Assembly (NCBI GenBank): GCA_000165345.1
Contig: CM000431.1
Coordinates: 832,001 to 896,000, forward strand
Reading direction: 5' to 3'
DNA length: 64,000 nt
In this document: piece after piece, positions 12,337-36,404 of the stretch
How the letters are laid out: each line of letters starts with the position of its first letter
Position numbering within the stretch: the first letter of the stretch is position 1
Notes under the pieces: model-generated
What the model saw: only the letters and a program-made list of their open reading frames with translations
Databases searched by the model: none
Told to the model about the DNA's origin: nothing
Translations under genes and position numbers: made by a program

Positions 12337-15300
12337 TTAATTTTCGTTTAAACTATCTAATACGTACTTTAAATACTCCAATTTCGTTTCTTTATAGAAT
12401 TTTTTCATCTCCTCAATAAGTTCCAGCTCTGAGCCTGAAAAGTAGTTAATATAAACTACCAAAAATACCAAGAGTGTATTTTTGCAAGCTGAATCTTTAT
12501 ATGAGGTGATAATTTCTGAAATTAAATTAATTATTTTTTCATTATCGGAAGTTTCAATCATTTTTTTATTTGATTTAAATTGCCAAAATATATATGAAAT
12601 ATCAGTCTTATTGTGATATAGTAGAAATTTCATGATCTTAATATTAGATAGAATTTTTAATATAAAGCCAGTATCTGAAATGGTTTCAAATATAAAAACA
12701 ATGAATATGAAATAAAAGCAGTCAAGCAACTGTTCTGGGAAGTATATATTTGAGTCACAAAAGGCTGAAATGAGTGAGTCAATAAGCTTTAATAAGCATT
12801 CATTATCAGTTTTGTTGTTTAAGTTGTACATTGTTTTGGCACAAATCGATTTGTTTTGTCTCCAGGTACGAATCATCTCTAATAAATAATCCTGTAAGTT
12901 TTCATTTTCTTTAACAGACTTTTCTTTATTCATGTGGACATAATTCTGAAGTTCTAATGAAAACTTTAAATAATCTAAAATAGTAATTCCCATTAAATTA
13001 TAATTAGAGTTATCAGTCTCTAAATATTTTGATCTTGAAATATTAATAATTTGATTTATTGAGCATTCAAATATATACTTCGATAAGAAATCAATCAATT
13101 CTTTCATTGATTTGGAACTTTCCAAAGAAAGTAGTTGTTTATTGAAAACTCTCTTCATTAAGGAGAAAAGAAATGGATTTTCTGTAGAAGTTGTTTCTTG
13201 GGATATAGTTGTAATCTGATAATATACAATATTGACGGAGTAAATAAATGGATTTAATATTAGTAAATTTGTATTATTCAAGCAAAGCGAGTATTCGTCT
13301 AATACTCTACCATAGAAATTATCAAATGGTTCTGAGATTTGCTTATTCAATTTAAGAATCCAAAATAAGGTAATAGAATACTCCTCAAGATTTTTGCTAG
13401 CGAAAAGAAGTATAAATAGTTTTTCATATAGAATTTTGGAGTTATAGTTAAAATTTTCTATTTCAAAAATCAATTTATCATTTTTAGAAATAGTTACTTT
13501 ACTAGATTTAGGAGCTGAAGGGTCAAGTATTGCAATGTCACTGGTTTTAATGTGTTCATTGTGTGTTGACAAAAGAAGATAAATATAAAGCAAATTAGAA
13601 TTTAAGGACTGTAAGTAAATTGAATTTTTCTTAACAACATTATTATTTGTAATTATTGTCTGACTATCGTTCATATTAAGAGCTTCAAAATAGCATAATT
13701 CGTAACTGAAAAGCTGATTTGACTTTAAATAAAAGTCTGAGTTATCTGTACTTATGTAATTTGGAAGAATATAATTTTCAGTAAGTATTTGATACATTTC
13801 TGATAGTAAATCAAATGATGGTTTCATGTATTTGAAATTTAAAGAAATGATTTCCTCTTTACCAGTTAATAAGTGTATCCGAGATACTTCCTTTAAAAAA
13901 GTTGAGATCAGAATTATAAAGAAGAAATCTCCATAGGTTTTATTATTTGATAAAATACTTTGAGAATTTGTGATGCCCATTTCAATTTCGAGTAGAAAAC
14001 CGCTTTCCAATGTGAGTAAATCTATGTTAAAATCCTGCTTTGAATGAGTTTTGAGGTAACTTTCGCAAAAGCTGATAAGTTCGAAGTGTGGTTCAAAGTT
14101 ATCATTGGCAAAGCTGGAGTTGGAGTTGTATCTTTCAATTAAGAGAACTTGGAATCTGATAATTGATGTTGATAAAAGGACGAAATCAAAGTTTTCATAG
14201 TTACCAAGAGATAAGTTACCTCTAATTATTTTAACTTTTTCAAAGATTTTTCCAATGAGTTGGTTAAGAACTTGAATAAATTGTAAGTGTTCGTGTTCAA
14301 TCTCATGGTATTTAGAAAAAAGCAATAGATTACATCCTAGTCCATATAAATGATAAATTATGAAAGATTGAATTGAGTCTTTAAGATCTACAAATGTGAG
14401 GTAATGAATGAGATCTTTGCAAAAAATTGACAAATCCTCTAAATAAATATCCTTCAATGCCATTATACCAATCAGTTTTACTCCTTCAACAAGGCTTAAT
14501 TGAATAAATTCACTTATTTCACTTGAGTGTAATTTCCGAGGATCCAAAACAGCTAAAATAACTATTCTTAAAATTGGGAGTACTGATTTGATAAGGAAAT
14601 TACTTAAGAAATCATTTTGAATACTGACAAATTTGCTTTCAATACGATTATCAATACAATAAAGTGACTGAGTATAAGTGCTAATTAAATAAATAAAGCT
14701 GAAGAGTAATTTGGCCATAGGAGAGTTAGAGTACTCCTGGGACGCTAATTCGGATGAAGAAAAGTCAAAAACTTCATCTCCAAGAGCATTTATCATATCT
14801 TCTAATGATTGAAAGCAAATACTTTGGTCATAAATACATTCTCTTTGAATAAAGAGCCTAATAATACTTATGCTGGATATACGAGATTCCAAGGCTCCAT
14901 ATTTATTTTGAGCCATCCTACAAAGAAAAGAGAATAAATAGTTCTTCTGAACTGATAACTCACTATTATCGTATTTAGTTGGTACATACTTAAATATCTC
15001 TTGCATTGTATCTCTTAGTAGCTCTAGACTTCTTCCATCAGGTAGGTCAAATCTGATAAGGTGTTCTTCATCTTGCAAATCGTTATATCTTATACCAAGA
15101 GATTGTTTTTGCATCAAGTGCGTAAAGAACTCTAATCTCTGACTAATAATGTTGTTTCTGAAATAAGAAGGGAAGTAAACCAATTTTTCATCTAAAATTT
15201 CAAAAACAAACTCTGAAGGGGTTAAAAAGTAGCTTAAGAGCTTGAATTTGCATGCTTCTGGTAAATTATTTTTGGTTGATCTGATGGGAAATTGTCCACC

Positions 15301-16053
15301 AGTAAGTAAATTGTTTAAAGCTATTACTGAGTTTTCTGCAGTTCTTGAAGCATAAGATTCATGGAATAGCATATTCAGTAACAAATAGTGGATTGAAAGA
15401 TCTCCTGTTAAATACTTATACCATCTATGTATTCCAAACAAATATCCAAGCAAGTATTTATGATAAGTTTTCCCGAATTGGTGGTCAAAAGTATGGTACT
15501 CTCTTATTTTAATAAAAATTTTTCCTAAAGTACGGATTGCTATACATCTTTGAGACACATTGCTGCTTCTAGAGAGGTGCATAAGTTCAGGAATAGTGTA
15601 TCCTTCAAATTCACCTTGTTCAGAGTGGTGATGCAGCCCTTTGTAGAAATATAAATTATCGTTCTTATACTTTTCTTCAGAGTTAGAGTTATCGCAAAGG
15701 CAGCCTTCAAAATCAAACCTAAGGTTGTGAAGATTCATATCGGATTTACCTGGAGATTCCCAATCATTTACATCCTCACCTAATGGATTTGTCCAACGCA
15801 ATTTTAAAATATCATTTTGAGTAAAGTTAAAAATTAAAGGAGGTTTTGACTCGAAACCCTCATTTATTGGATTTTTATTCGCTCTATCCGTTTCTTTACT
15901 TCCTTCTTCACCTTTCTTTTCCAATTTTTTTCGATTGTATACTGCAGGAAATCCTGTATTTGGATGTTTAGATTGGAGTTTCTCACTTGCAAGGAAGCTA
16001 CCAACCTCCTCCTCTACTATATTAAAATCATCAGTGTTTGCATTTATTTGCAT
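12337..16053 (-). CDS. Large conserved hypothetical protein (1238 aa); possible RPAP1/Rba50-like RNA polymerase II-associated protein.
   Basis: 3.7 kb ORF with verified ATG. Motifs NLRFDFEG and TIPELMHLSRSSNVSQRCIAIRTLGKI resemble the RPAP1_N (RFDF.G) and RPAP1_C (L.RS...QR..AL) signatures recalled from that family. The functional call is tentative. Confidence 0.75.
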   Translation of the reverse strand: MQINANTDDFNIVEEEVGSFLASEKLQSKHPNTGFPAVYNRKKLEKKGEEGSKETDRANKNPINEGFESKPPLIFNFTQNDILKLRWTNPLGEDVNDWESPGKSDMNLHNLRFDFEGCLCDNSNSEEKYKNDNLYFYKGLHHHSEQGEFEGYTIPELMHLSRSSNVSQRCIAIRTLGKIFIKIREYHTFDHQFGKTYHKYLLGYLFGIHRWYKYLTGDLSIHYLLLNMLFHESYASRTAENSVIALNNLLTGGQFPIRSTKNNLPEACKFKLLSYFLTPSEFVFEILDEKLVYFPSYFRNNIISQRLEFFTHLMQKQSLGIRYNDLQDEEHLIRFDLPDGRSLELLRDTMQEIFKYVPTKYDNSELSVQKNYLFSFLCRMAQNKYGALESRISSISIIRLFIQRECIYDQSICFQSLEDMINALGDEVFDFSSSELASQEYSNSPMAKLLFSFIYLISTYTQSLYCIDNRIESKFVSIQNDFLSNFLIKSVLPILRIVILAVLDPRKLHSSEISEFIQLSLVEGVKLIGIMALKDIYLEDLSIFCKDLIHYLTFVDLKDSIQSFIIYHLYGLGCNLLLFSKYHEIEHEHLQFIQVLNQLIGKIFEKVKIIRGNLSLGNYENFDFVLLSTSIIRFQVLLIERYNSNSSFANDNFEPHFELISFCESYLKTHSKQDFNIDLLTLESGFLLEIEMGITNSQSILSNNKTYGDFFFIILISTFLKEVSRIHLLTGKEEIISLNFKYMKPSFDLLSEMYQILTENYILPNYISTDNSDFYLKSNQLFSYELCYFEALNMNDSQTIITNNNVVKKNSIYLQSLNSNLLYIYLLLSTHNEHIKTSDIAILDPSAPKSSKVTISKNDKLIFEIENFNYNSKILYEKLFILLFASKNLEEYSITLFWILKLNKQISEPFDNFYGRVLDEYSLCLNNTNLLILNPFIYSVNIVYYQITTISQETTSTENPFLFSLMKRVFNKQLLSLESSKSMKELIDFLSKYIFECSINQIINISRSKYLETDNSNYNLMGITILDYLKFSLELQNYVHMNKEKSVKENENLQDYLLEMIRTWRQNKSICAKTMYNLNNKTDNECLLKLIDSLISAFCDSNIYFPEQLLDCFYFIFIVFIFETISDTGFILKILSNIKIMKFLLYHNKTDISYIFWQFKSNKKMIETSDNEKIINLISEIITSYKDSACKNTLLVFLVVYINYFSGSELELIEEMKKFYKETKLEYLKYVLDSLNEN

Positions 16054-16524: not shown

Positions 16525-16929
16525 ATGCAGAGCTCAATTGAAAATGCAAGGTAAGTTTTACTATTTTCTTTGATTCTAAATAATTTTTTAACCTAACATT
16601 TGACTAATAGGAGAGTAAACAAGGAGGAACTACAAAACTTCGTCAACAAGCAGGTTAGATTTGTTGGAAAAGTAGTTTCAGTCGAAGGAGAAATAGTAAT
16701 TTTAGAGGCGCCAGATGGTGGCACTGTCAGATGTAGAACTATAAGCCCACCACCAAGCACTTATGTAGAAGTCATTGCTCAAGTTATGCCCGATCTGTCA
16801 TTAACTCAAACGGACTTCATGTTTGATTTAGGCGACTCACTAAATATGGATTTAGTTAATGAAAGTATCAAAGTTTCGTTTCATCCCAAGTTAAGACAGC
16901 ATTGGGAGCCTGTTTCTAATATTGCTTAG
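16525..16929 (+). CDS. RPA3: Replication protein A 14 kDa subunit (RPA3). Two exons, 16525..16550 and 16611..16929, with a 60-nt GTAAGT...TAG intron at 16551..16610.
   Basis: The exon 2 ORF (the track calls it from a TTG) aligns by eye to human RPA3: R[IV]N..L..F[IV].K.V.FVG[RK], [FV]IL...DG[GE], FDLG...N...K. Upstream ATGCAGAGCTCAATTGAAAATGCAAG | GTAAGTTTTA...CTAATAG | G gives an in-frame phase-2 splice. Spliced product is 114 aa. Confidence 0.75.
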
Positions 16930-17017: not shown

Positions 17018-17206
17018 TTACTCTTCATTTCTATGCTGTCTTGCTAACTTTCAAAGACTGTGCATTCCCGCTAACTGTCATTCCAATCCCGGTTTCTACA
17101 GAAACTTCCAAAATCAAATTGAGAGTTTGTGATTTAAAAGACTATTTAGGTGCAAAATTTATGTAATACTTGTTTGGAAGAAAATTTATTTCAGATCTTT
17201 TTCAGT

Positions 17207-20200
17207 ATGGATCTATCTATATCCCCAAATTCTCTACTAAAGGAATTAATTGCAAACAAGGAATTCGTTCATATTGTCTCTACAGATGTATTGGCAGTTA
17301 CTGATAATTGTCTAGACTTTATTTGGGACGTTGGGATTAGTGGTCCCAGAGGTTCGGAAAGTAAAATATTTAATTCTAATAAACATTTGGTAGGTTTAAT
17401 AAGAAGAGGTCTTTCTTTTGGAATTAAACTTTCATTAGAAAAAGCTAAGAAATCAAAGAAGTGGTTTGAATATGATCCCAATAAAATTAAAGTTTGGATT
17501 CTCAAGCGAGGAATGGAAAAGTTTGGGGATTTACTATTTGATTTTGAAAAAAGATTGGATCAGATAACTCCTATATTAGGAGAAAACTTAAAGGGATTGA
17601 AAATTGTGGCATTGGAAAAGCTAGACGGAGAAAACTCCCAAATCTCTTACTTTGATACCACTGATCAATGGGTTATTGGTTCTAAGAATGTAACCATACT
17701 TTGTAGAGATATTAATGATTTAGAAAGTACTTTATATGCAGAAAGTAGATACGAATCTGTGAAAGTTAGTGCATACTCTTGGTTTCGTACACTGGAACAG
17801 TTCAAAGCTTGTTCTAAAGGGGATTTTGTAGCAAAAATTAATGATCTCAAGAAACTACTTATGAACAATACTTTGCTTTGCGAGACTATTGGAAATTCCA
17901 ATAGACAACATATAATTAATTATTTAGATATCACCACCCCTCAACTCTACTTCACTGGGTTGGTTTCAAAAGAAAACAAACGTGACAGCTGTTATAATCC
18001 TGTGTCTCTGATGCAATTTTTGGATCCATTTTTTTTCAAGTACACTGCCAAATTCGTTGATTTGCCTTCTCAATCCATCGTTTCTGAATCTTTAGAAAAA
18101 CGGATTTTTGGGAATATCTCAATTAGTTTCAGCCCAATCTGTTCTTTTAACAACCAAAGCTTTGACTTCCAAAGTATAGATGAACTTTGTAACTATTTAT
18201 CAGTTATACAAAGCATTATACTAACTCTAAGAACAAACACTGAAGGGATAGTGTTATATCTTATTAATTCTGGCCAAAAGTTGGATCAAGATATTGTTTT
18301 GTCTGCATTTAAGATAAAATCCCTGCAATTTTCCACTCTAAGACTTATTCGAGAAAATTTAAAGAACTCAATCATAAAGAATTTTGCAATTAATGGACTT
18401 GATGAATATAAAGAGGCAATGACACAACCTTACAAAAATCATAATTCTATCATGAAATACTCCATAGATAACTTTTGGTTCTCAGTATATAAATACTTAA
18501 TCATTTCAGTCCAAAATAATGCTGAAAACTTCTTCAATGTAATCGACAAAAACTTTAAGATTATTCGCAAACAAATTTCCAACGTTTATAATATCTTTGA
18601 CATTGAAATTGTTAATCAAATTGAGAATGAATTTGTTTTCTTCAAGCAATTACTATTATATTCTTCCATTTACTTAATAGATCAAATTATTTACTTAAAC
18701 TTGAATAACACTAAAACGGATAGTGTACAACTCTCCAGATACTTTTTTGACTCATTTTCGAGCTTTATTTCCGATATAAAGTCTCAAATATCCTGTTCCA
18801 GAAAATTAACTGGTATACCTCCGAGTATTTGCTCTACTTGTAATGTAAATTCATCCGGGTCAGTCATAGTTTCGCCTAGTCACTTTGGAAGTATTCCATC
18901 TGGATCTACTATTGAGTTTATGGTTCCTCCTTTTAACTGGTCTTGGAAAGAAATCAAGGATATGCTTTCTTCGGACTTCTCTCTTAGTCATGATACTTGG
19001 ATTCTCAACAAAGATGAATACTATGTAACTTTAGACCAAAAAGATTCCAGTGAAAGTTTTTTGTTTCCTTTTTCAAAGACAAAATATCATCTTTTTGTTA
19101 ATTTGAGACATGTATTCGATGATTGTGTATCACGAGAAAGAAACCAACTTTATAGTTACTATAAAATATTCGTTCCTAATAAGCATAAATTGTCTACAGA
19201 TAGTAATAATGAGGTTATCTTTACTAGAACTGAAAATAGTATCAAGTTGTCTACATTTAGATCCAGTTCAGTTAGACTATTCTGGAAAATGATCGGGAAA
19301 CTAGATTCTGCTACCAAGACAACTATTATAAATGAAATTGGAACTAAAGGATACAATCAGCTAAACCAAAACCAACAACTTGTAAGAAAATTAGAGACTC
19401 TCCCATTGAAGTTTCCTTGGGTTAATAAAAGTTGTACATATATCTTTCCTTCTGGTTACGCTATTAATATAAGAGACTTTGAGCACTTGCTATATGCAAT
19501 TTTTGGGTCTAGTGATTTTAAATACGTAGTAAATTCATTTTATAACTGTGAAACAAACCAAGACTTAAGCGAAACCGTTAATATTAAAGAAAGCCCAACT
19601 GGTAATGGATTAAAACTTGAAACCACTTTTGTTTTACCATGTGGAATCCCTGGTTCAGGCAAATCATTCATGCTCAAGTCATTTATCAAAAAACAAATGT
19701 CGATACGAAAAGATTCATATTATGTTTCAGCGTTAACTTCAGGAGAACATGTAACTAAATTTGATATGGAAGATGAATCCATTTACTCGCTGATTGTCTC
19801 GTCAAATAATAAGTCGAACTCTTCCAAAGATAAACGATTTGACTTGATTTTTTATGTATCCAAAGATGGATGCACAAGAAGTATATTGAATGGGTTTAAA
19901 TGGAACTATAACGCATTATTTTCCGAGAAAATTCCAAAAACATACACTAATTATAGTTTACCAGCTGATTCTTCCGAAGATTCATTGTCTGAAACAGAGT
20001 TTCGGAAATTGTCCAAAAAGTCCAAGTTTTGTATGAACTTTATAATTGAGTCTTTCATAAACCTTTGCTCAGAAATAGTCAAAGGTAATTACGAGAAAGG
20101 TTCAACTAAAGATGAGAGCTTTCCTGAGTGGGTTAAACATTTGAAAAGTGAATATAATTTTACCAGGAACTTAAGAATTTTAATTCTTGTGGATATGAAC

Positions 20201-21817
20201 CATACTCCGGATGCATTTGTCGGAATTAATGAAGATTTTAGTAGTAAATTTAAATTAACTGAAATCACCTTATATAAAGTAATTGTATTATTTATCTCCC
20301 AAGGCTTTATAAAAAGTTCTAGAAGGCCAAAAAAATGGAGATTTATCATGAGTAAAGAAGAAGTGATAATATCTATTTTAAAAATGATTAAAAGAAAAAA
20401 TCACAGTACCCTTAAGGGACTTTCTAGGAAAAGTGTAAATGTTTTACTTCATTTCCTTACTTTATACTCTCAAGTGATTAAACTTGTAAATGAAAATGGA
20501 CAGGCAATTAATTCAGTATTATCAAAGAATACCTTTAAATCATTGGGTTTTAATGGAGTTATTGAAATAAAAAATGACTATACTGAATTCAAATCTATTT
20601 TAAAAGAGAATAGTGAAATTTTTGCATCACTAAAATCGGATCTAACACAGATATTAAACAATAATATAGACCTTCAGAATACAAAAAATAGTGAGAAGAT
20701 TGTCTCTAGATTTATGGATAATCTTGAAATTCTTTCAAATTCAATCAATTCAATCCCAGATTCTTTAAATCATTTTGCTGTTAACTCATTTTATTCGTTT
20801 ATTTATTCTACATGCAATAATATCCCCTTCAAGGAATCAGAAAATAACTCAACAAAACTCTATTATAGTTTGGGAAATAATTTGATAATTAAACCATTTA
20901 ATTTGAATGTCAATCCAAAAGGAGATTTGGGTGATTACTTGTCCCGAATTCGGGGAGAGCATAACCTTACAGCAATTACTTTTGAAAACCATAAATCAAG
21001 TATAGAAGCAATTACTAAGATTTGGAATGATCATAAAGAATCACTGGAAGACACCATAAATCATGATTCTGATTCTAAAGAAGATGTTGATCACAAAGTT
21101 ATAAAACTAGAAGATATTCCAAATGATAAAAAGCATGTTACTTGCTGCTTTTTTGGACATACTACTGATTCAAACACTAAAGATAAGTCAAATGTTGAAT
21201 TTTTGCTTATTAGCAAAACCATTTCCAATTTACAAGTTTTGCTTTCTTTGCCTTTTATTGGCAGAAGTTATGACTTCCAAGTTTCATATTTGATTTTTAT
21301 TCACGGTTGGAAATTGGCATTCTTGACTGTTTCTCCTATGTCAAAACTATTTGAAATTCCATCAAATGAGACGAATTATGATATTATAATTAATGAAAAA
21401 CTTCCTAATAATTCAGTGGAAAATGAAAGTGTTAAGGAATTTAGTTCAAATCCTGAGATTGACGAATTTGAAGGAATTGGTAATAAGACAAGTTTGTTGC
21501 TAACATCCTTATTACCTTTTAGAGAAAATGGACATTCTCATATTACTTTAATTTCTGAAAAATTTAATCCTGTAATCTCAAACGTTGCAATTAACCTTTT
21601 AGGTGAAGACTTTTCAAAATTATCAAGCCTGGATGCGAATGAATATGGGGTACAGACTTTGGAAGTTCAAGTAAATGAACAGCCATTGGAGGGAATTCTG
21701 AAAAAAGGACTAAGTGAAGATGACTCTAAACTGGATCCTGTGAAAACTCTAAGAATTTTAGCAATTAGACTTTGGGATAAGAGGATAATGCTAAAAGGAG
21801 ATTTAGGATATATGTGA
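17207..21817 (+). CDS. Multidomain RNA ligase / polynucleotide kinase / 2H-phosphoesterase candidate (Trl1-type tRNA ligase-like), 1536 aa.
   Basis: The track starts this ORF at GTG 17150; the first ATG is 17207. Nucleotidyltransferase motif I EKLDGE (K157, nt 17618) matches T4 Rnl1 TEKIDG. Motif IV EGIVLY is at 18242..18259 and motif V AFKIKS at 18311..18319. P-loop VLPCGIPGSGKS (19643..19666) matches T4 Pnk GCPGSGKS, with Asp855 17 residues after the P-loop Lys. C-terminal HVTC (21134..21145) and HITL (21539..21550) lie about 135 aa apart, which is 2H phosphoesterase spacing. Confidence 0.85.
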   Translation: MDLSISPNSLLKELIANKEFVHIVSTDVLAVTDNCLDFIWDVGISGPRGSESKIFNSNKHLVGLIRRGLSFGIKLSLEKAKKSKKWFEYDPNKIKVWILKRGMEKFGDLLFDFEKRLDQITPILGENLKGLKIVALEKLDGENSQISYFDTTDQWVIGSKNVTILCRDINDLESTLYAESRYESVKVSAYSWFRTLEQFKACSKGDFVAKINDLKKLLMNNTLLCETIGNSNRQHIINYLDITTPQLYFTGLVSKENKRDSCYNPVSLMQFLDPFFFKYTAKFVDLPSQSIVSESLEKRIFGNISISFSPICSFNNQSFDFQSIDELCNYLSVIQSIILTLRTNTEGIVLYLINSGQKLDQDIVLSAFKIKSLQFSTLRLIRENLKNSIIKNFAINGLDEYKEAMTQPYKNHNSIMKYSIDNFWFSVYKYLIISVQNNAENFFNVIDKNFKIIRKQISNVYNIFDIEIVNQIENEFVFFKQLLLYSSIYLIDQIIYLNLNNTKTDSVQLSRYFFDSFSSFISDIKSQISCSRKLTGIPPSICSTCNVNSSGSVIVSPSHFGSIPSGSTIEFMVPPFNWSWKEIKDMLSSDFSLSHDTWILNKDEYYVTLDQKDSSESFLFPFSKTKYHLFVNLRHVFDDCVSRERNQLYSYYKIFVPNKHKLSTDSNNEVIFTRTENSIKLSTFRSSSVRLFWKMIGKLDSATKTTIINEIGTKGYNQLNQNQQLVRKLETLPLKFPWVNKSCTYIFPSGYAINIRDFEHLLYAIFGSSDFKYVVNSFYNCETNQDLSETVNIKESPTGNGLKLETTFVLPCGIPGSGKSFMLKSFIKKQMSIRKDSYYVSALTSGEHVTKFDMEDESIYSLIVSSNNKSNSSKDKRFDLIFYVSKDGCTRSILNGFKWNYNALFSEKIPKTYTNYSLPADSSEDSLSETEFRKLSKKSKFCMNFIIESFINLCSEIVKGNYEKGSTKDESFPEWVKHLKSEYNFTRNLRILILVDMNHTPDAFVGINEDFSSKFKLTEITLYKVIVLFISQGFIKSSRRPKKWRFIMSKEEVIISILKMIKRKNHSTLKGLSRKSVNVLLHFLTLYSQVIKLVNENGQAINSVLSKNTFKSLGFNGVIEIKNDYTEFKSILKENSEIFASLKSDLTQILNNNIDLQNTKNSEKIVSRFMDNLEILSNSINSIPDSLNHFAVNSFYSFIYSTCNNIPFKESENNSTKLYYSLGNNLIIKPFNLNVNPKGDLGDYLSRIRGEHNLTAITFENHKSSIEAITKIWNDHKESLEDTINHDSDSKEDVDHKVIKLEDIPNDKKHVTCCFFGHTTDSNTKDKSNVEFLLISKTISNLQVLLSLPFIGRSYDFQVSYLIFIHGWKLAFLTVSPMSKLFEIPSNETNYDIIINEKLPNNSVENESVKEFSSNPEIDEFEGIGNKTSLLLTSLLPFRENGHSHITLISEKFNPVISNVAINLLGEDFSKLSSLDANEYGVQTLEVQVNEQPLEGILKKGLSEDDSKLDPVKTLRILAIRLWDKRIMLKGDLGYM

Positions 21818-21977: not shown

Positions 21978-23174
21978 TTACAATATAAAATAGGGGCACT
22001 TATTAGAAATGAACCAATGTTCAAAATCTTCAATAGAAATCATATTATCTGAATCCTTATCCAAATGATCGAATATGATTTCTATTTCACTTTTTGAAAT
22101 ACTGAAAGGGAAATTCAATGACTTTAATCCGTTGAATAGCTCATCCTGGTTGATTTGGCCATTTCCATCTTCATCCAAAGCATTAAAAAAACGGTGGATT
22201 TTTTTAAGCTTATATTCAGGGTCGTGATCTTTGCTTATTTTAATATTTCCCAATTCAGAATGGGAAATTTCATCTCTATTATAAATACCTAGATCTTCTA
22301 AATCCCTGCTCCCGTAATACTTGAGGATATTTAGAATCTTTCTTAGCTTTGAAGCTGCTAATATCCCAAATATAATGTTAAGTATTCCTGTAAGCCCTAC
22401 AAATAGTGACATGAGTGAGAAGTATGTAGATTGAGTTAAATATAGAGAAATGGTGCAGAGCAGAATTTGTATAGATCCTCTTCCAACTGATAGTTCTAGG
22501 AATTTGAACCAAGTGCGAACAAATATCTCTATGTGCTTGATTCGCTTCTTTTTAGATACTTCAATGATTAAAACTACAGAGGATATGGATATAATATATA
22601 GCGAGATGACTATTGCTAGCAAGTTTATTGAGATCAGTCCAAAAATGCAGTTTAGGGTACCCATCAAGAACAGGTTTGCGGTTGCTACCTGAGATAAAAC
22701 CCTGAATGATTTTTGTCCCTTAAAAACCTGATCCCTAAACTCTAAATACTGCTCCAATAGGTCCTGTTTTACTTCTAGAAATGAATTCACCGCTTCTTTC
22801 TTTAAGTTTTGAAAAAGTTCATTATCCGTTTTATCTTGGATATCAATTTTTTGTTCATACCGTTCTTTTTTCAGGAGGTGAGCACTTTCGTCGTTGCTGA
22901 GGTTCCCCTGTCCAGGTTCCCCATTTTCCTTTAAACTAACACTCTCTATCTCCCCGTCACATTTCTTCCCATTTGTATTTCCAAGGTTTACTTTGATTTT
23001 ACTTCCCTTGTCGATATTTCTCGACTTTTCGCTATGATTAGCCTTATTGTTTTCATTTTCCTGATTATTTTCCCTTTCATATTCATCCTCATAAATAACA
23101 ACGGAATCTTTGGAAGATCTGAGCTCCTTTTTGTCGGAATCTGGAGTTTTATGGTCGGGATTGTTTCTTCTCAT
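21978..23174 (-). CDS. Multipass membrane protein with two C-terminal EF-hand Ca2+-binding loops.
   Basis: The track ORF starts at a TTG (23219); the first ATG is 23174..23172 (MRRNNPDHK). Several hydrophobic helices. C-terminal DEDGNGQINQDELFNGL and DKDSDNMISIEDFEHWF are canonical EF-hand loops. Confidence 0.75.
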   Translation of the reverse strand: MRRNNPDHKTPDSDKKELRSSKDSVVIYEDEYERENNQENENNKANHSEKSRNIDKGSKIKVNLGNTNGKKCDGEIESVSLKENGEPGQGNLSNDESAHLLKKERYEQKIDIQDKTDNELFQNLKKEAVNSFLEVKQDLLEQYLEFRDQVFKGQKSFRVLSQVATANLFLMGTLNCIFGLISINLLAIVISLYIISISSVVLIIEVSKKKRIKHIEIFVRTWFKFLELSVGRGSIQILLCTISLYLTQSTYFSLMSLFVGLTGILNIIFGILAASKLRKILNILKYYGSRDLEDLGIYNRDEISHSELGNIKISKDHDPEYKLKKIHRFFNALDEDGNGQINQDELFNGLKSLNFPFSISKSEIEIIFDHLDKDSDNMISIEDFEHWFISNKCPYFIL

Positions 23175-23743
23175 TTCAATAAAGAATGTGAGAATAGAAA
23201 CAATATAAACATAGATCAAAAAGTAGTTTATTTTTAAAAAACTTAAACAAAGAAAGAAATGACAATTTTTATTATTTTTTTTCCAAATTATTCAGGCCTC
23301 TAAATCCTATACCGGCATTGGGTATCGGATTTTTTTTTATATAAAAATGCATCTACGTGGCCCCCCACAAAGTAATTAGTCCCCCCTCTTCTATAAATAT
23401 ATTTTTTATATGAAAGATTTAATATATTAGAAATTAAATAGATAAAATTTGGAGTAAATATCTTAGTAAAGAGGAGGAAAGTGAAATGAATATAGATTAA
23501 CAAATATATCTAAAATATAAACCTAGACATAAATATCCTAACTTAACTTAAATCTAAATGGTTTTTAAAATATGATTTTAAATCTGATGAATTTCTAATG
23601 TATTTTTAAACATATTCTCTTGCTAAATTAATAAAATAATAACCTTTTTACCTGAATTTCCCAGAATCTGGTAGTTTATTGCATTCATACTGAAATAGCT
23701 AGGATTTTACTCGGATTATTTTAAAGCAATTATATTCAACCCC

Positions 23744-26700
23744 TTATTCAACCACTTTTATTAGCTGGAATAGATTTCCCTTCCTCTGTAGTGCACATGT
23801 ACCTGGCTCAATAAAGTCACCTTTGACTGCATTGTGAAGAGTAATACTTGGATCCATAGGCCACCAATTAAATGGCCTTGCATACCATCCTAAAGTATTT
23901 CCAAGAGCTGTAGTTTGGGGAACATCCTCCAATGTTGGAATATGCCAAATCCCAGATGTAACCCAAGTTACTACGTCTCTATGTCGGATAACTTCATCAT
24001 CCATAATGAACGAATCAAATCTGACAGCAGGTTTTGAAGCGAATTTATTATCTCTTGGAAGATCTGCATCAAGTTCTGAGTACTTAAACACGGAAGAAGC
24101 CAAATCATACTTTGACCAAGATGCTGGTCCTGAGTAAAGCTCATGTTCAGGCATCAAGTCTGCAATAGATTTAATAGATTTTATCATAAACCCACCAACA
24201 TTCCCATAAGTTTGTAATTTTTCATCAACAACAAAGTATGCTTTAGGATGATGATGAGTTTCATTCAGCATAGAATAGGCATTTGTTTCTCTTTCTGCTA
24301 TAATTCTCTCCAAAATATGGTGTCCTTCTTTCTCAGGATCTCTCCTTACTTTAACCCAAGCTACAGAATTATCCGTATAGTCTGGTCCAAGATCAAAGTC
24401 GACCTTCCAAACAGCAAAGTGAGAGTGTAAAGCTGCCATTTGTCCAGATGGAGTAATCTGAGTCCCGTATTTCTTTTGTTTAGCAGAGAAATATGGTACT
24501 TCCAGACCTGCATATAGTTCACCTGTAAAGCTGACTCCCATTTCAAATGATCCCTGATTATACAAAATAAGGTCTACAATGTAATCGTAGTTGGAGACTG
24601 TAATAATTTGCCTGATAACTAGACTAGTAAGGGGTGCAGCATCTTTAATACCTCCAGATTTCCAATGGGATCTAATTGGTCTTCCAGTATCTAACTCGAA
24701 GATACAGGCACTGCTATCCCAGAAGATAGTCTGAGCAGTGTTTGCGCATTCAAGACCAGGATGGACTTTTCTTGCTGCTGTACCTAAACCTCCGTACCAA
24801 CTGTCCAAGAAGAACCACTGTCTTTCAAATACGGTATAATGAGCCATTGCGTCCACCATTGCAACTTCAAATGCCACTCTTCTTCCTAAAAATGTTAAAT
24901 TCCATATTTTCAGCCCACTATCACGATCATTTGTGAGAGTTAGCTCCCATCCAATCCAATTGACTGTATAAGCCTCTCTATTAGGGGATTTGAAAACTTG
25001 GAATCTTCTACCTCCAGGTTCACAATGTTCAGGTTTAGCTCTGGATTCCAATCCTCCTCTACTAAACATCTCAAGGAACTGAAGCTTTCTTAGCCTTAGT
25101 TCATTCATATGTTTTTCTCTTTGTATTCTTCTCTCTTGTAGAATATTTGGAGTTACAAGTTTTAAAGGAAGGTTGCTAAATGGAGTACCTGAGCTCTGAC
25201 TTTCTTCAATACTTGCTTTGGCTTCATTGTAAGTACTAACCAAGTCCTGAAGAGTTTTAAAAGAAGTTCCATCATACCAAATCCTATTTACCAACATCTG
25301 ATGCATCCTGTCAAACTCTATCTTTGCGTGGCCATTTCTAATGCTCTCTAATGTTGTATAAGGTGCCTTCAATTCGAAAAATATTGGACACTGATTACCT
25401 TCTTTTGTTTTCAAGCCTATCCATAGCTTTGGCTCTGCATCTTCATCCTCATCTTCTTCATCTACATCTTTTCTTTCCTGTTCTTCCTCATTCTCTGAAG
25501 TAACGTTGTGAGGTTGATAAATTATTGGACCTAATTTGACATAATCCTTTCCAAATACTTGGTCTCTGGGAAGATAATTTCCACAAGTTTCGAATACTAT
25601 CTTATCCAAAGAATTCTGTTCCAAAAGCTCTCCCAATTTAAGCATTGGAATTGAGAATCTTGTTTTTCCTTCATCATTTATTATAATCTGCTCCAGCCTC
25701 CTCCCAAAAGGTCCAGTAGGATTCCAGCCATCACATTCTACTGGTCTTGGCTCAGATATTGGATAATGTTTCATTGCTATAATTTTCTCATCTTCACTTA
25801 CGTTGCTAGTAGTGTTTGAATCTGCGACATTCCATAAGCCGATATTCTCAGTCTCTTTTTTGGTAAGAATAATAGGTCCAACTTTCCACTGATGGTAAAG
25901 ACCATTCAATCCAAGAGGATCAACCATATTTTCAGTTTCATTGCAAGATCCAAACCTAACTCTTGCATATCTCTCTGGAGGGTTTGGCTTTGGGTAAAGC
26001 TCTGGAGTCCTTTTATGTAGATCTAGGGAATCCAAATATTCATAGGCCTCAGTCTTATTCACAAACAATGTGACCCTATAAGGACCTTTTGACCCAACTG
26101 ACTCCTTTACTGAGTCAAAGTAGCTCCTAACTTTCATTTCTTCTAAATATGTCAAAGGATCAAAAGGTGTTTCCATTCCATTTTCTACTTCTGAAGGGTA
26201 TGAAGGGATATCACAAAACTTTCCAAAAGAAGAAATATCCTTTGCTGTTGCCCATATATCTGAGATAGTCATTGTTAGTCCTGTCCTACTCTGAGCCATA
26301 CAATAAATAATATACTTTTGGTTGCCTTCAATTCCATTCAAGATTAGTTGCTTTTCTTCTTTAGGATCACTTACTTCAGTATTTTGGCCATACTTTTCGA
26401 TTTCACTTGGACTTGGATACATACCTTCTGGTAGAGTTGCTACACAAGTTATCTTTCCAGGGGTATCACTCTTTACAACAATATTAAATCTTCCAAGTTC
26501 CGGTACAATCCTCGTGATCTCAATTTTTGGAACTCTATCTTTAGTTGTGACTCTCTTGGTTAAGTTTGCCAACACTTTTTCAAAGCTTATTCTATTTGAT
26601 CTTGGTAATGCTAAATCCTCTGCCAAACAGACTATATCATATTCTGTGGATGGAATTAAATTCCTAATTGATAGTTTAATATCTCCACTAATATCCTTAC

Positions 26701-29053
26701 TGGAGATATTTTTCTCAACTCCACTACTTTTTATAAGTTTTACAAGCCTCTGTTCATCAATATGGTCTTTGTTTGCCAAATCTCTAATTCTTGAAAAGTT
26801 GTTATTATTGTCTGCCATACACCAAATCGTTCCTGATTCATTAATCTTCAAAGTAAGCTCAACACTTTCCTCTAATGTTTTAAATTGCTTTATTTCAAGT
26901 TCTGGACTCTTTGAATCAGTAGTTACTCTTATTCTTGAGTATTCAACAGAAAGATCATCCACACTAGAAACAGAGTCAGTATTTCCCTTATTCTTAATGA
27001 TTCTACTAACTTCCTCAGAGAAGCAGAAGAGATCGTACTCTGTATTTGGTCTAATTTCACCCTTAGAAAATGATGAAATAACAAATGTATGACTCTCCTT
27101 TATATTTAAAGATTTCGGGGCTCTTTGTCCATATTTCTTAAGAACTGATACTGTTGGTGTAATAGCTCCTGCTCTGGTAATTCCACACCAAACATCCACT
27201 CCCTCTCTGTTGGACTTTATTGTAGCTCTAATTGTTTTTTCATCTGCTTCAACCTTTTCTATCTGTATTGAACCAATACTTAATTCAGTCTTAAGGCTAG
27301 ATCCTTGCTTGAATCCTTCTCCAACTTTAATCACTTCATCAAAGAACCTGAATTCCAAGTAGCTTCCACTATTCCATCCATCTCCGTAAGAATCATGCAA
27401 GCTTACAGTGTAGTTTCCATATCCTGGTAGACAGCATGGAATCCAGTCAGTACTTGAAACAAGGTCAGAATTTACATTAATATTATTGAAAGAGTAGGTT
27501 CTTCCACTACATCCCAAAGCTCCCTCTACTTCCCAAGACTTCTCAGTTGTGAAGTTACTACTTACAAGCCTTACTTCTCCCCATACACATCTTTGGTCCT
27601 CTCTCTCACTAGATCTCATTACCTCATTTGAGCAATGCCCTGATTTTACAATAATATCATCCAAAGCAATCAAGCTATCCTCAGAACGTCCACCAACTCC
27701 CTCAATAATCATTCTCAAGGGAGTTATACCGTCAGAATAGAATTCAAACCCCCCAAATTGCCATGATGGACCCTGCTGCCCTACAACAAGCCAGTTTGGA
27801 CGTCCATAATGCAATGTAGGTTTTGGGATTTTGTTTTCCAGACGATTTCCTTTACCATCAAGTTGAACTGAGTTCAAAAGACCTGATGCCATATACATCC
27901 TTAACACATTTACATCAGCTCCTGCCATGAAATATCTTAAAGTTAGACAATGACTACCAAAGCTATATACCCTTGGATTTCCTATTAATACTGCTGAAGC
28001 TCCTGGCATATATCCTGGTGCTCTAAAGAAAATATAGTGCCCTTCTCCCTTCACTCCTGTAGTTGTATCACTTTCTGGTCTCGACCCAACTATAGTTTCC
28101 TCACCAACTCCAAGTTCAAATCTTGTCTTTGTTTGGTAGTCTAAAAGAGAGCTGAATCCACAACCAAGGTAACCTTGGAGCTCAAAATCACAATTAAATG
28201 ATGAGTTTTCTTTGGTATTTAATAAACCAGCTGAATAAATATGTAATTTTGGGCTCATGGTATCCTTGAATGCTCTACTTCTTGCAGGAGAATAACAAAT
28301 TGTAAAACTATCAGCATCATCTTTAATCCCATTTATACTGAAGATTACTGTCGCCTGCCTAGCAGCAGATTTTTGCATATTATCACCAATAACAAGCTCT
28401 GAAGTCTCGTATGATCTTACTCCTTTAAACGGTCCCAAGCCAATTTTATTTGGTGGACATTTTCTTAGAATATCACTAAGTAGTAAGTTCTTTTGCTTAA
28501 TAGTCTTCTCTGGAGAATAATTTTCATTTTTTAGTAGGTAAATTGAATCATCTTGTGTTAGACCTACTCCAGATATAGCAACTATACAATTTGATCTTTT
28601 AATACAAAAGTATTCTTGAACAATTGGAGAGATTTCTACAATTGAGTTAGAAGGTCCAGATACTGCCTCATCCTCAGCCCCACTTTGTAACATATAGCCT
28701 CTATTCCCTTCTTCTGGACAGGAGGAGGCACCATCTATAATTTCTGTGGGATTTGGAGAATCTTGGGTATACAAATACAAAACACATCCTTTTTCGGATT
28801 TTTTGTCAGAGCTTACTGCCTTTTCTGGATTGTTAGATTTTTCCTGTAAAGATCTTAGCGAAGGTCTGCCTTTAGATTGTTCTTGTCTTTCTGGAAATAA
28901 TAGCTCTTCAATAGCTGAAGGTTCATTCATACTTGGAAGAATTCCCGCATTTCTAGTTAGTGGATTTGAAGCATCAGCTTCATTTATTTGACTACAGATT
29001 AGTTCAGATAAACTGAAAAAAGTCAGAAGCAAGAACTTTAACCAATGAAGCAT
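23744..29053 (-). CDS. Secreted multidomain protein (1769 aa): signal peptide, MAM domain, a Cys-containing GDGW module, three ~90-aa Ig/FN3-like repeats, and a C-terminal copper amine oxidase catalytic domain.
   Basis: Signal peptide MLHWLKFLLLTFFSLSELICS. MAM-like block FNCDFELQGYLGCGF...GHYIFF...IALDDIIVKSGHC at about 27640..28200. CAO TPQ consensus TVSNYDYIVD (NYDY at 24581..24592), copper ligands HSH and GIWHIPTLEDVP. Three repeats each end in ..TEYD..C.(A/S)E. Confidence 0.9.
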   Translation of the reverse strand: MLHWLKFLLLTFFSLSELICSQINEADASNPLTRNAGILPSMNEPSAIEELLFPERQEQSKGRPSLRSLQEKSNNPEKAVSSDKKSEKGCVLYLYTQDSPNPTEIIDGASSCPEEGNRGYMLQSGAEDEAVSGPSNSIVEISPIVQEYFCIKRSNCIVAISGVGLTQDDSIYLLKNENYSPEKTIKQKNLLLSDILRKCPPNKIGLGPFKGVRSYETSELVIGDNMQKSAARQATVIFSINGIKDDADSFTICYSPARSRAFKDTMSPKLHIYSAGLLNTKENSSFNCDFELQGYLGCGFSSLLDYQTKTRFELGVGEETIVGSRPESDTTTGVKGEGHYIFFRAPGYMPGASAVLIGNPRVYSFGSHCLTLRYFMAGADVNVLRMYMASGLLNSVQLDGKGNRLENKIPKPTLHYGRPNWLVVGQQGPSWQFGGFEFYSDGITPLRMIIEGVGGRSEDSLIALDDIIVKSGHCSNEVMRSSEREDQRCVWGEVRLVSSNFTTEKSWEVEGALGCSGRTYSFNNINVNSDLVSSTDWIPCCLPGYGNYTVSLHDSYGDGWNSGSYLEFRFFDEVIKVGEGFKQGSSLKTELSIGSIQIEKVEADEKTIRATIKSNREGVDVWCGITRAGAITPTVSVLKKYGQRAPKSLNIKESHTFVISSFSKGEIRPNTEYDLFCFSEEVSRIIKNKGNTDSVSSVDDLSVEYSRIRVTTDSKSPELEIKQFKTLEESVELTLKINESGTIWCMADNNNNFSRIRDLANKDHIDEQRLVKLIKSSGVEKNISSKDISGDIKLSIRNLIPSTEYDIVCLAEDLALPRSNRISFEKVLANLTKRVTTKDRVPKIEITRIVPELGRFNIVVKSDTPGKITCVATLPEGMYPSPSEIEKYGQNTEVSDPKEEKQLILNGIEGNQKYIIYCMAQSRTGLTMTISDIWATAKDISSFGKFCDIPSYPSEVENGMETPFDPLTYLEEMKVRSYFDSVKESVGSKGPYRVTLFVNKTEAYEYLDSLDLHKRTPELYPKPNPPERYARVRFGSCNETENMVDPLGLNGLYHQWKVGPIILTKKETENIGLWNVADSNTTSNVSEDEKIIAMKHYPISEPRPVECDGWNPTGPFGRRLEQIIINDEGKTRFSIPMLKLGELLEQNSLDKIVFETCGNYLPRDQVFGKDYVKLGPIIYQPHNVTSENEEEQERKDVDEEDEDEDAEPKLWIGLKTKEGNQCPIFFELKAPYTTLESIRNGHAKIEFDRMHQMLVNRIWYDGTSFKTLQDLVSTYNEAKASIEESQSSGTPFSNLPLKLVTPNILQERRIQREKHMNELRLRKLQFLEMFSRGGLESRAKPEHCEPGGRRFQVFKSPNREAYTVNWIGWELTLTNDRDSGLKIWNLTFLGRRVAFEVAMVDAMAHYTVFERQWFFLDSWYGGLGTAARKVHPGLECANTAQTIFWDSSACIFELDTGRPIRSHWKSGGIKDAAPLTSLVIRQIITVSNYDYIVDLILYNQGSFEMGVSFTGELYAGLEVPYFSAKQKKYGTQITPSGQMAALHSHFAVWKVDFDLGPDYTDNSVAWVKVRRDPEKEGHHILERIIAERETNAYSMLNETHHHPKAYFVVDEKLQTYGNVGGFMIKSIKSIADLMPEHELYSGPASWSKYDLASSVFKYSELDADLPRDNKFASKPAVRFDSFIMDDEVIRHRDVVTWVTSGIWHIPTLEDVPQTTALGNTLGWYARPFNWWPMDPSITLHNAVKGDFIEPGTCALQRKGNLFQLIKVVE

Positions 29054-35618: not shown

Positions 35619-36404
35619 ATGTTTGAAGCTAGATTACAGAATGCCATGCTATTTAAAAAGATAGCAGAAGCTCTTAAAGAGCTTTGCCATGATATTAACA
35701 TAGATTGTGATAGCGATGGGCTACATCTTCAAGCCATGGACTCTTCTCATGTTGCTTTAGTATCATTGAATATCCAACCAGATGCATTTGAACATTATAG
35801 ATGTGATAGACCAGTAGTTCTTGGTTTGGATATGCAACAACTCTCTAAATTTATGAAATTCTGCGATAAAGATACTAGTATGACTCTTAAAAAATATGAT
35901 GATAATGAAGATAATAGAATTACTATGTGTTTTGAAGATAATAGTGGAATTCTCTCGTCAAAAGAATGTACTTTAAGGCTAATGGATATTGAACAAGAAC
36001 ATATTTCAATCCCGGAAGAGGAATACGAATGTAATGTTACAATGCCTTCAAATTTATTTCAGTCAATTGTTAGAGATATGTCAGGTATTGGAGATGAAGT
36101 TAGTCTTGAAATTAGTGGAAAGAATATCAAATTTTGCGTGGATGGTGATGATGGAAAAATTGATCTTAATTTTCCTCTTAATGATAGCCCTGATATAACT
36201 AAAGCAGTACAAATTCATGCTGATGATACAATTTCCCAAAAATATGCCCTTAGATACCTCTCATACTTTACAAAAGCATCTCCTTTAAGCACTACTGTCA
36301 ATATTAGTATTTCAAAAGGAGTACCACTTAGATTACAATTTCCACTTAATGACAAATATGAACATGGAAACATGCAATTTTACCTTGCTCCTAAACTAAG
36401 ATGA
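35619..36404 (+). CDS. PCNA: Proliferating cell nuclear antigen (261 aa).
   Basis: MFEARL..A..FKKI.EA.KEL....N.DC...G...QAMDSSHVALVSL...F..Y.CDR...LG..M...SK, then LAPK at the C-terminus: full-length PCNA pattern. Perfect palindrome TTTGGCGCCAAA (E2F-like) 165 bp upstream. Confidence 0.95.
   Translation: MFEARLQNAMLFKKIAEALKELCHDINIDCDSDGLHLQAMDSSHVALVSLNIQPDAFEHYRCDRPVVLGLDMQQLSKFMKFCDKDTSMTLKKYDDNEDNRITMCFEDNSGILSSKECTLRLMDIEQEHISIPEEEYECNVTMPSNLFQSIVRDMSGIGDEVSLEISGKNIKFCVDGDDGKIDLNFPLNDSPDITKAVQIHADDTISQKYALRYLSYFTKASPLSTTVNISISKGVPLRLQFPLNDKYEHGNMQFYLAPKLR

Follow-up and report, generated by a model that had tools for sequence, protein, structure and literature searches.

The 64,000-nt stretch of Cryptosporidium parvum DNA analyzed here (the window; positions 832,001 to 896,000 of contig CM000431.1, assembly GCA_000165345.1) is AT-rich (~21–38% G+C) and carries on its forward strand a long gene that very probably encodes a Trl1-type heal-and-seal RNA ligase, to judge from its sequence, in which a ligase (LIG), a polynucleotide 5'-OH kinase (KIN), and a 2H-type cyclic phosphodiesterase (CPD) follow one another on a single polypeptide (Table 1). 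The open reading frame (ORF, 17150..21817) is uninterrupted; its first ATG at 17207 and the TGA at 21815–21817 delimit a product of 1536 aa, which is identical (100% across 100% of the length) to EAK89000.1/Q5CUC2 of C. parvum Iowa II. Every source names this protein "hypothetical protein", and the only hint in the databases is the automatic UniRef name of the C. muris orthologue, "RNA ligase domain-containing protein". An earlier reading of the DNA (the original prediction) had recognized motifs of the three activities in the order known from Trl1. Indeed, each of these motifs was found at the proposed place and spacing: EKLDGE begins at residue 137 (K138), EGIVLY at 346 (208 aa after K138), FKIKS at 368 (22 aa after E346), the P-loop FVLPCGIPGSGKS at 808, and the motifs HVTC and HITL at 1310 and 1445, 135 aa apart. 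The residues K157, E365, K388, K390, H1329, and H1464 of the original prediction are the same positions, numbered from an upstream GTG (+19). The protein is, as had been pointed out, about twice as long as yeast Trl1 (~830 aa in fungal Trl1), and the order ligase–kinase–CPD was seen in the ORF, in the alignments, and again in Cvel_23737 of Chromera velia. One comparison had to be corrected: EKLDGE had been likened to a T4 Rnl1 motif I quoted as TEKIDG, but this motif reads TKEDG (K99), and the form EKxxGxN is that of T4 Rnl2 (EKIHGTN).

Table 1 Features of the ligase gene and its surroundings in window coordinates (aa, residues of the 1536-aa product; CthLIG, Chaetomium thermophilum ligase; AF2, AlphaFold2)
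Feature	Position	Strand	Remarks
DEAD-box helicase gene	10273..12258	+	
RPAP1-like gene (RPAP1_C domain)	12337..16053	-	
Small ORF upstream of the ligase gene, RPA3/Rep_fac-A_3 homologue	16600..16929	+	E=4e-16
Complete intron-less coding sequence, 1536 aa plus TGA	17207..21817	+	C. parvum Iowa II EAK89000.1/UniProt Q5CUC2
Predicted LIG adenylyltransferase module, ~aa 61–385	17387..18361	+	Pfam cut-offs passed in orthologues; hhalign to Trl1-LIG
Pre-motif-I RRG, aa 66–68	17402–17410	+	
Pre-motif-I RGMEKF, aa 101–106	17507–17524	+	RGMEKFGDL vs Chaetomium Trl1-LIG RGYDKFFNI
Motif I EKLDGEN, K138 predicted AMP-accepting Lys	17615..17635	+	K138 vs CthLIG K148; invariant in 11 Cryptosporidium species and Chromera
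Motif Ia SKNVT (S159, K160)	17681..17695	+	GSKNVT vs Chaetomium (Trl1) CSKHST; invariant
Motif III TLLCETI (E226), then RQHIINY (H235)	17870..17923	+	E226, motif III Glu; H235 aligns with CthLIG H227; LLCETIG..RQHIINY vs Chaetomium AVAELCD..EEHILAY
Motif IIIa LYFTG			vs Chaetomium LYLHG
Motif IV EGIVLY (E346, G347)	18242..18259	+	vs Chaetomium EGFVIR; invariant
Motif V FKIKS (K369, K371)	18308..18322	+	vs Chaetomium FKYKF; invariant
RLIRE, R379 and R382, triad members 2 and 3	18341..18355	+	align with CthLIG R334, R337; LRLIRE vs Chaetomium YRQWRE; invariant
Helical region aa 386–540, probable counterpart of the Trl1-LIG C-domain (tentative)	18362..18826	+	hhalign and AF2
Region aa 541–800: variable linker, alpha/beta block ~566–700, helical block 701–800	18827..19606	+	
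KIN, ~aa 801–1100, predicted P-loop polynucleotide 5'-OH kinase	19607..20506	+	lineage-specific insertions
P-loop GIPGSGKS (K819, S820)	19643..19666	+	maps to yeast K404/T405; K819 invariant; ciliate/Chromera GIPGMGKT vs C. albicans Trl1 TIGCGKT
YVSKDG, D887 candidate general base	19853..19870	+	invariant in Cryptosporidium, Chromera, and ciliates by MAFFT; ciliate/Chromera SSDDIR vs C. albicans QNDNIS
VDMNHTP (D996, N998)	20189..20209	+	corresponds to fungal FDRNN; one-residue register ambiguity; ciliate/Chromera VDKNHPP vs C. albicans FDRNNSA
RKNHSTL (R1063, H1066, T1068)	20393..20413	+	corresponds to fungal R-G-x-N-H-Q-S; maps to yeast R511 (R1063) and H515 (H1066); R1063, T1068 invariant; ciliate/Chromera RVQSRADHQTL vs C. 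albicans RVIQRGDNHQSI
KIN–CPD helical connector aa 1101–1240 (~140 aa)	20507..20926	+	poorly conserved, 1% invariant; AF2 helices
CPD, ~aa 1241–1536, predicted 2H phosphoesterase fold	20927..21814	+	~60-aa variable insertion; start ciliate/Chromera PVYLG vs C. albicans PTYYG
First 2H motif HVTC (H1310, T1312)	21134..21145	+	maps to yeast H673/T675; ciliate/Chromera HVTT vs C. albicans HVTL
Second 2H motif HITL (H1445, T1447)	21539..21550	+	maps to yeast H777/T779; invariant; ciliate/Chromera PHMTL vs C. albicans LHITI
EF-hand protein with COPI_assoc-like membrane region	21978..23219	-	
1769-aa ORF, MAM and C-terminal copper amine oxidase	23744..29053	-	
2578-aa ORF	36396..44132	-	

The N-terminal module was assigned by Pfam and by profile–profile alignment. 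Two Pfam families of RNA ligases were matched above their cut-offs, PF09511 (RNA_lig_T4_1, the T4 Rnl1/Trl1 family; cut-off 28.3 bits) by the orthologues of C. ubiquitum (30.0 bits) and C. felis (28.4 bits), and PF09414 (cut-off 27 bits) by those of C. muris and Chromera (30.1 bits each). As references for hhalign, we used fungal Trl1 sequences including the PDB chains 9qw7_A, 9r3w_A, 6u00_A, and 6tzm_A, which were retrieved with a yeast Trl1 query; this query was validated by its match to the tRNA ligase chains (E=2.4e-175), and the key hhalign results hold without it. A profile of the N-terminal parts of the Cryptosporidium and Chromera proteins aligned to fungal Trl1-LIG over 315 columns with P=3e-4 (P=1.5e-3 with PDB-only references) and brought motifs I, Ia, III, IIIa, IV, and V into register. 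The score of 39.3 was far above those of 40 column-shuffled Trl1-LIG references (15.4 ± 3.1, maximum 26.3; z=7.8), and reversed and cross-domain controls gave P=0.24–0.72. Furthermore, the alignment revealed a His-Arg-Arg triad. Ghosh and Shuman (2024, PMC11404444) described H227, R334, and R337 of CthLIG as a strictly conserved triad that enforces the requirement for a 2'-PO4, the defining property of a fungal tRNA ligase. These residues align with H235, R379, and R382 of the C. parvum protein and are identical in 12/12 alveolate sequences, from which we would predict that the C. parvum ligase reads the 2'-PO4 as well.

Full-length orthologues were present in C. hominis, C. tyzzeri, C. meleagridis, chipmunk genotype I, C. 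ubiquitum, C. canis, C. felis, C. xiaoi, C. ryanae, C. muris, C. andersoni, and one more assembly, with identities of 27–100% among the 11 Cryptosporidium species. The catalytic positions named in the original prediction (K138, E346, K369, K371, H1310, and H1445) proved to be invariant, together with K819, in all 11 species and in the full-length Chromera velia orthologue. Across Cryptosporidium, the set of invariant residues also includes E226, H235, R379, and R382 in the ligase and D879, D887, D996, N998, R1063, T1068, and T1447 in the C-terminal half; residue 1312 is either T or S, next to an invariant H1310. Invariant positions make up 20% of the ligase core and 13% of KIN, vs 0–1% of the linkers.

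A hidden Markov model profile of the C-terminal half was run exhaustively against 1.84 billion representative proteins. At E<=1e-3 it returned 11 proteins, namely Cryptosporidium orthologues (C. muris, 6e-77), Chromera velia Cvel_23737 (P0015), and the shorter proteins P0011, P0012, P0014, and P0017; Plasmodium, Toxoplasma, or gregarine homologues were not among them, for which loss and divergence are both possible explanations. Two alignment-based, word-indexed homologue searches showed only Cryptosporidium among the matches listed. Cvel_23737 (1648 aa) is a full-length LIG-KIN-CPD orthologue with an N-terminal PF09414 domain. Chromera velia is a free-living photosynthetic relative of Apicomplexa; motif I of its protein, EKANGEN, is intermediate between EKLDGEN of Cryptosporidium and the fungal KxNG, and the protein contains long low-complexity insertions rich in Gly, Ala, Ser, and Glu. 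The shorter proteins originate from the ciliate Pseudomicrothorax dubius (P0017) and from sources that include metagenome/Logan contigs (P0011, P0012, P0014/P0038). They are stand-alone kinase-2H proteins with the motifs GIPGMGK(S/T)F, SSDDIR, VDKNHPP, and RVxxRxxHQTLxG and two HxT motifs. Such stand-alone "healing" proteins are homologous to the KIN-CPD part of Trl1 and analogous to the PNK/CPDase of the lancelet; one of them, P0038 (966 aa), starts with a long stretch of repeats rich in Glu, Lys, and Ile (EEEKIE..., NKIEKLEE...). The family is alveolate-wide, being fused in all sampled Cryptosporidium and in Chromera and occurring as stand-alone KIN-CPD in ciliates.

These proteins served as a bridge between the C-terminal half of the C. 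parvum protein and Trl1. By hhalign, the Cryptosporidium C-terminal half matched the stand-alone kinase-2H proteins over 459 columns (probability 99.1%, E=5.8e-19), and each domain on its own matched the group of Chromera and ciliate proteins (KIN, P=1.1e-20; CPD, P=4.7e-5). The ciliate and Chromera profile in turn aligned to fungal Trl1 KIN-CPD over 330 columns, approximately the whole module (probability 86.5%, P=4.6e-6; P=1.3e-5 with PDB-only references; KIN, P=1.7e-4; CPD, P=7e-3). Its score of 51.7 compares with 15.1 ± 2.6 (maximum 22.1) for 40 column shuffles (z=14), and all cross-domain, reversed, and shuffled controls stayed at noise level. PF08302 (tRNA_lig_CPD) also appeared below threshold in two of the ciliate-type proteins (E=0.003 and 0.008). 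The two-step mapping from yeast Trl1 via these proteins to C. parvum places every catalytic motif of KIN and CPD opposite a counterpart (Table 1). In a MAFFT alignment, the Cryptosporidium, Chromera, and ciliate proteins all share K819, D887, D996, N998, R1063, T1068, H1310, H1445, and T1447. Profile support therefore reaches the ligase by way of Pfam as well as hhalign, and the kinase and 2H modules by way of the transitive hhalign chain. Both outcomes that would have counted against the original prediction, a lack of profile matches for the three modules and a loss of the named residues in orthologues, failed to appear.

The general base of the kinase had originally been sought in the Asp located 17 residues after the P-loop Lys. 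This residue, D836, was rejected because it is not conserved in the orthologues. Instead, MAFFT paired yeast D425 and ciliate D167 with the invariant D887 (YVSKDG; YVSSDG in Chromera), which is likely to be the general base as far as the alignment tells. A match to T4 Pnk (P~3e-5) was driven by the P-loop and drifted into the phosphatase domain on inspection; it was thus not used as evidence on the type of kinase. No DxDxT motif was found anywhere in the protein, which therefore does not carry a healing module of the T4 Pnkp type.

A further line of evidence came from structure prediction. AF2 models were built from 9-sequence, single-genus alignments and are of low confidence. In a structural ranking, Trl1 LIG-KIN 9r3w (7.9), PSTK (7.6), and the Mucorales RNA kinase (7.5) stood above T4 Pnk (6.5) and 2H Acb1 proteins (5.4). 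With Foldseek, the 33 top-ranking matches were all CNPase (probability 0.89–0.91). Identity to CNPase was 16% across the aligned part. CNPase is held to derive from tRNA-healing enzymes, and in yeast it can stand in for the Trl1 CPD. The structural evidence agrees with the profile chain, of which it is independent.

Several observations weigh against the assignment as a Trl1-type enzyme. Queried alone, the C. parvum protein reached PF09414 only below threshold (E=0.12), gave no kinase or 2H family match in Pfam, and had no match in the PDB. Its C-terminal half hit generic P-loop families in Pfam and no 2H family. The Chromera protein had no match in the PDB either, and HMMER profiles built from 9 orthologues or from the ciliate-type proteins found P-loop-level or spurious coiled-coil matches there and no Trl1. 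In PHROGs, a single weak RNA-ligase match appeared (E=0.009, C. muris only). The structural models have a mean pLDDT (predicted local distance difference test) of 45.8 in the N-terminal and 52.6 in the C-terminal half, and the best Foldseek E-value was 0.09. In addition, ~700 residues lack a Trl1 counterpart, and the literature attributes tRNA ligation in an apicomplexan, Plasmodium, to RTCB. Profiles of Cryptosporidium alone were not significant against Trl1 KIN (P=0.024) and CPD (P=0.11), so that the assignment of these two modules rests on the transitive chain and the low-confidence model.

The last point, together with the generic nature of the Pfam matches, could also mean that the ligase alone is functional and that the P-loop and/or 2H domains have decayed or taken on another task, for instance as an NTPase or an RNA-binding scaffold. 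In line with this idea, the kinase carries large insertions, the P-loop of C. felis reads GLPASGKS with a Tyr at residue 1066, and the alignments disagree on the general-base Asp, with hhalign putting the equivalent of D425 inside a Cryptosporidium-specific insertion. We consider this explanation quite improbable: nine catalytic-motif residues of KIN and 2H (K819 to T1447) have been kept from Cryptosporidium through Chromera to ciliates, and KIN far exceeds the linkers in its share of invariant positions.

The Pfam evidence for the ligase is itself split between families, since PF09414 matched 8/9 orthologues and PF09511 4/9. In the hhalign comparison, single sequences of T4 Rnl1 (P=0.21) and T4 Rnl2 (P=0.42) gave noise-level alignments with the alveolate ligase, vs 6.5e-5 for the positive control, the Trl1-LIG reference against T4 Rnl1. 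One might therefore suppose that the protein is unrelated to Trl1 and represents a generic Rnl2/Rnl5-like (PF09414) ligase, fused by chance to a P-loop NTPase and containing fortuitous HxT motifs. Motif I, with its T4 Rnl2-like EKxxGxN, and weak Pfam matches to viral helicase and AAA families would fit this view. We rejected membership in the Rnl2/Rnl5 type and hold the supposition to be highly improbable. The noise-level alignment with T4 Rnl2 contrasts with the significant one with Trl1-LIG, which pairs both the His-Arg-Arg triad and the RG..KF elements of the Trl1 type, and as both T4 ligases remained at noise, we regard Trl1-LIG as the closest characterized relative. Moreover, the HxT motifs are invariant among the alveolates, KIN-CPD matches its Trl1 counterpart end to end via the ciliate/Chromera bridge, and the controls all gave noise. 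Taken together, a highly divergent and expanded trifunctional ligase of the Trl1/RNL class, with the order LIG-KIN-CPD, is in our estimation the best explanation of the gene overall, and a probable one.

The expansion is distributed over several regions. Between LIG and the kinase, an unassigned gap of ~400 aa had originally been noted. Part of it can be assigned tentatively, because the hhalign alignment to Trl1-LIG runs on to aa 476 and AF2 predicts an all-helical aa 374–535 (low pLDDT), which would fit a counterpart of the helical C-domain of Trl1-LIG. The remainder, aa 541–800, indeed lacks any Pfam or PDB match and has 5–6% invariant positions. It contains a conserved block at aa 566–700 (window 18902..19306; IEFMVPPFNWSWKEIKDMLSSDFSL...VNLRH...YKI) without a Pfam or PDB match, a segment similar to which (VLVAPPLLLRKSLVQRL) occurs in Chromera. 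Local confidence in the N-terminal AF2 model is highest at aa 561–600 (pLDDT 67–79). The block may represent a lineage-specific extra domain. No Pfam or PDB family was matched by any of the extra lengths, i.e., aa 541–800, the KIN insertions, the connector, and the CPD insertion.

No functional link or clue was evident from the neighbors of the ligase gene (Table 1). The RPA3 homologue was called from a TTG codon, so that it probably begins elsewhere or has another exon structure. Downstream, the 1769-aa ORF combines a MAM domain (aa 288–475, E=2e-14) with a copper amine oxidase domain (aa 1342–1737, E=1e-55), a pairing unusual for an apicomplexan. The 2578-aa ORF lies in the 36–46 kb stretch, which is the most AT-rich of the window (21–26% G+C) and has a negative GC skew.

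Compared with known systems, the C. parvum protein is most similar to fungal Trl1 (S. cerevisiae, C. albicans, and Chaetomium thermophilum; PDB 6n67, 9r3w, 6u00, 6tzo), with which it shares the LIG-KIN-CPD order on a single polypeptide, the six ligase motifs, the RG..KF element preceding motif I, the His-Arg-Arg triad, the P-loop, DxN, and R..H(Q/S)(S/T) motifs of the kinase, and two HxT motifs. It differs in its length, in its motif I (EKLDGEN, and EKANGEN in Chromera, vs fungal KxNG), and in a divergence so high that HMMER finds no similarity to the PDB chains. Its extra residues relative to fungal Trl1 comprise ~260 between LIG and KIN, KIN insertions at aa 836–880 and ~890–990, the ~140-aa connector, and the CPD insertion. 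Fungal KIN is GTP-specific. Outside the fungi, the same trifunctional ligase–kinase–CPDase layout is found in plant RNL (AtRNL) and kinetoplastid TbTrl1, and plants and kinetoplastids are considered the sole lineages beyond the fungi to possess the Trl1 pathway. Cryptosporidium and Chromera keep the modules fused, unlike Branchiostoma floridae with its PNK/CPDase and RNL or the Mucorales with a "sealing-only" ligase and a separate kinase. Vertebrate CNPase lacks a ligase domain and has a PNK-like domain that does not act as an RNA kinase. As for T4 Pnkp and Rnl1, the similarity observed here hardly exceeds the P-loop; 3'-end healing in T4 is performed by a DxDxT phosphatase, and T4 Rnl1 lacks the 2'-PO4 triad that is aligned in C. 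parvum.

The mechanism that we infer, entirely by homology, would proceed in three steps. The C-terminal 2H domain (H1310-x-T, H1445-x-T) would hydrolyze the 2',3'-cyclic phosphate that results from RNA endonuclease cleavage to a 3'-OH/2'-PO4 end. The central P-loop kinase (K819/S820, R1063, and D887 as the probable base) would phosphorylate the 5'-OH end at the expense of an NTP. The N-terminal ligase would then adenylylate itself at K138, transfer AMP to the 5'-PO4, and join the ends, with H235, R379, and R382 reading the 2'-PO4 in the fashion of fungal Trl1. Afterwards, removal of the junction 2'-PO4 by a Tpt1-type enzyme would be required. The most likely substrates would be the tRNA exon halves that the tRNA splicing endonuclease releases; other broken RNAs may be joined as well.

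Whether the enzyme has the tRNA/HAC1-type role of the original prediction and acts in tRNA splicing is a separate question from its molecular identity, and here we lean, by a modest degree, towards the view that it is the parasite's tRNA-splicing ligase or one of them. The same molecule could alternatively serve general RNA repair, resealing tRNAs or other RNAs cut under stress or by nucleases or acting on viral and other non-tRNA substrates, with tRNA splicing left to an RtcB orthologue, as has been reported for Plasmodium. According to a 2026 preprint, parasite tRNA ligases are either RTCB (e.g., in Plasmodium and Giardia) or Trl1 (in Trypanosoma and Leishmania). Both systems are present in trypanosomatids and in Branchiostoma, showing that they can coexist; in a 2023 survey, T. 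brucei alone among the representative eukaryotes combined RtcB, Trl1/Rnl, and Clp1. A tRNA scan of the window found no tRNA genes, and no tie of the gene to tRNA introns was seen. Nevertheless, the splicing ligase of T. brucei, which has both systems, is Trl1 and not RtcB, and the 2'-PO4 triad and the complete heal-and-seal layout match those of ligases dedicated to tRNA splicing. The gene with its invariant catalytic residues has also been kept in all 11 sampled Cryptosporidium species. Cryptosporidium genomes are strongly reduced. We thus judge a role confined to general repair to be rather unlikely and retain tRNA splicing as the favored function.

The 5'-phosphate pathway of tRNA ligation by Trl1 has been described as confined to fungi, trypanosomatids, and plants, with a split version in the lancelet, and apicomplexans have been placed with the RtcB pathway. 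In the accessible literature, we found no link of Cryptosporidium, Chromera, ciliates, or other alveolates to Trl1, an earlier mention being possible, and nothing relevant on Tpt1, RtcB, or Trl1 in Cryptosporidium. A Trl1-type enzyme in alveolates would therefore widen the described range of the pathway. A more far-reaching scenario, which we put forward as a speculation and consider doubtful, is that Cryptosporidium, in contrast to Plasmodium, no longer has RtcB and relies wholly on the expanded Trl1 for tRNA splicing, that the 5'-phosphate pathway is ancestral to the alveolates, and that the ~700 extra residues form new RNA-binding or regulatory modules. If this were true, the enzyme would be essential and without a human counterpart in a pathogen for which no fully effective drug exists. 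Its fused form in Chromera and split form in ciliates would mark heal-and-seal repair as ancestral to alveolates, perhaps to eukaryotes, rather than as a peculiarity of fungi, plants, and kinetoplastids, and the lineage-specific residues, including the aa 566–800 block, would constitute such new modules. Because it is missing from humans, Trl1 is under study as a drug target in fungi and trypanosomes. If Cryptosporidium could not live without its enzyme, this reasoning would extend to a parasite for which treatment options are poor. The analysis also proposes a specific function, open to testing, for a 1536-aa protein listed as "hypothetical" in all Cryptosporidium genomes.

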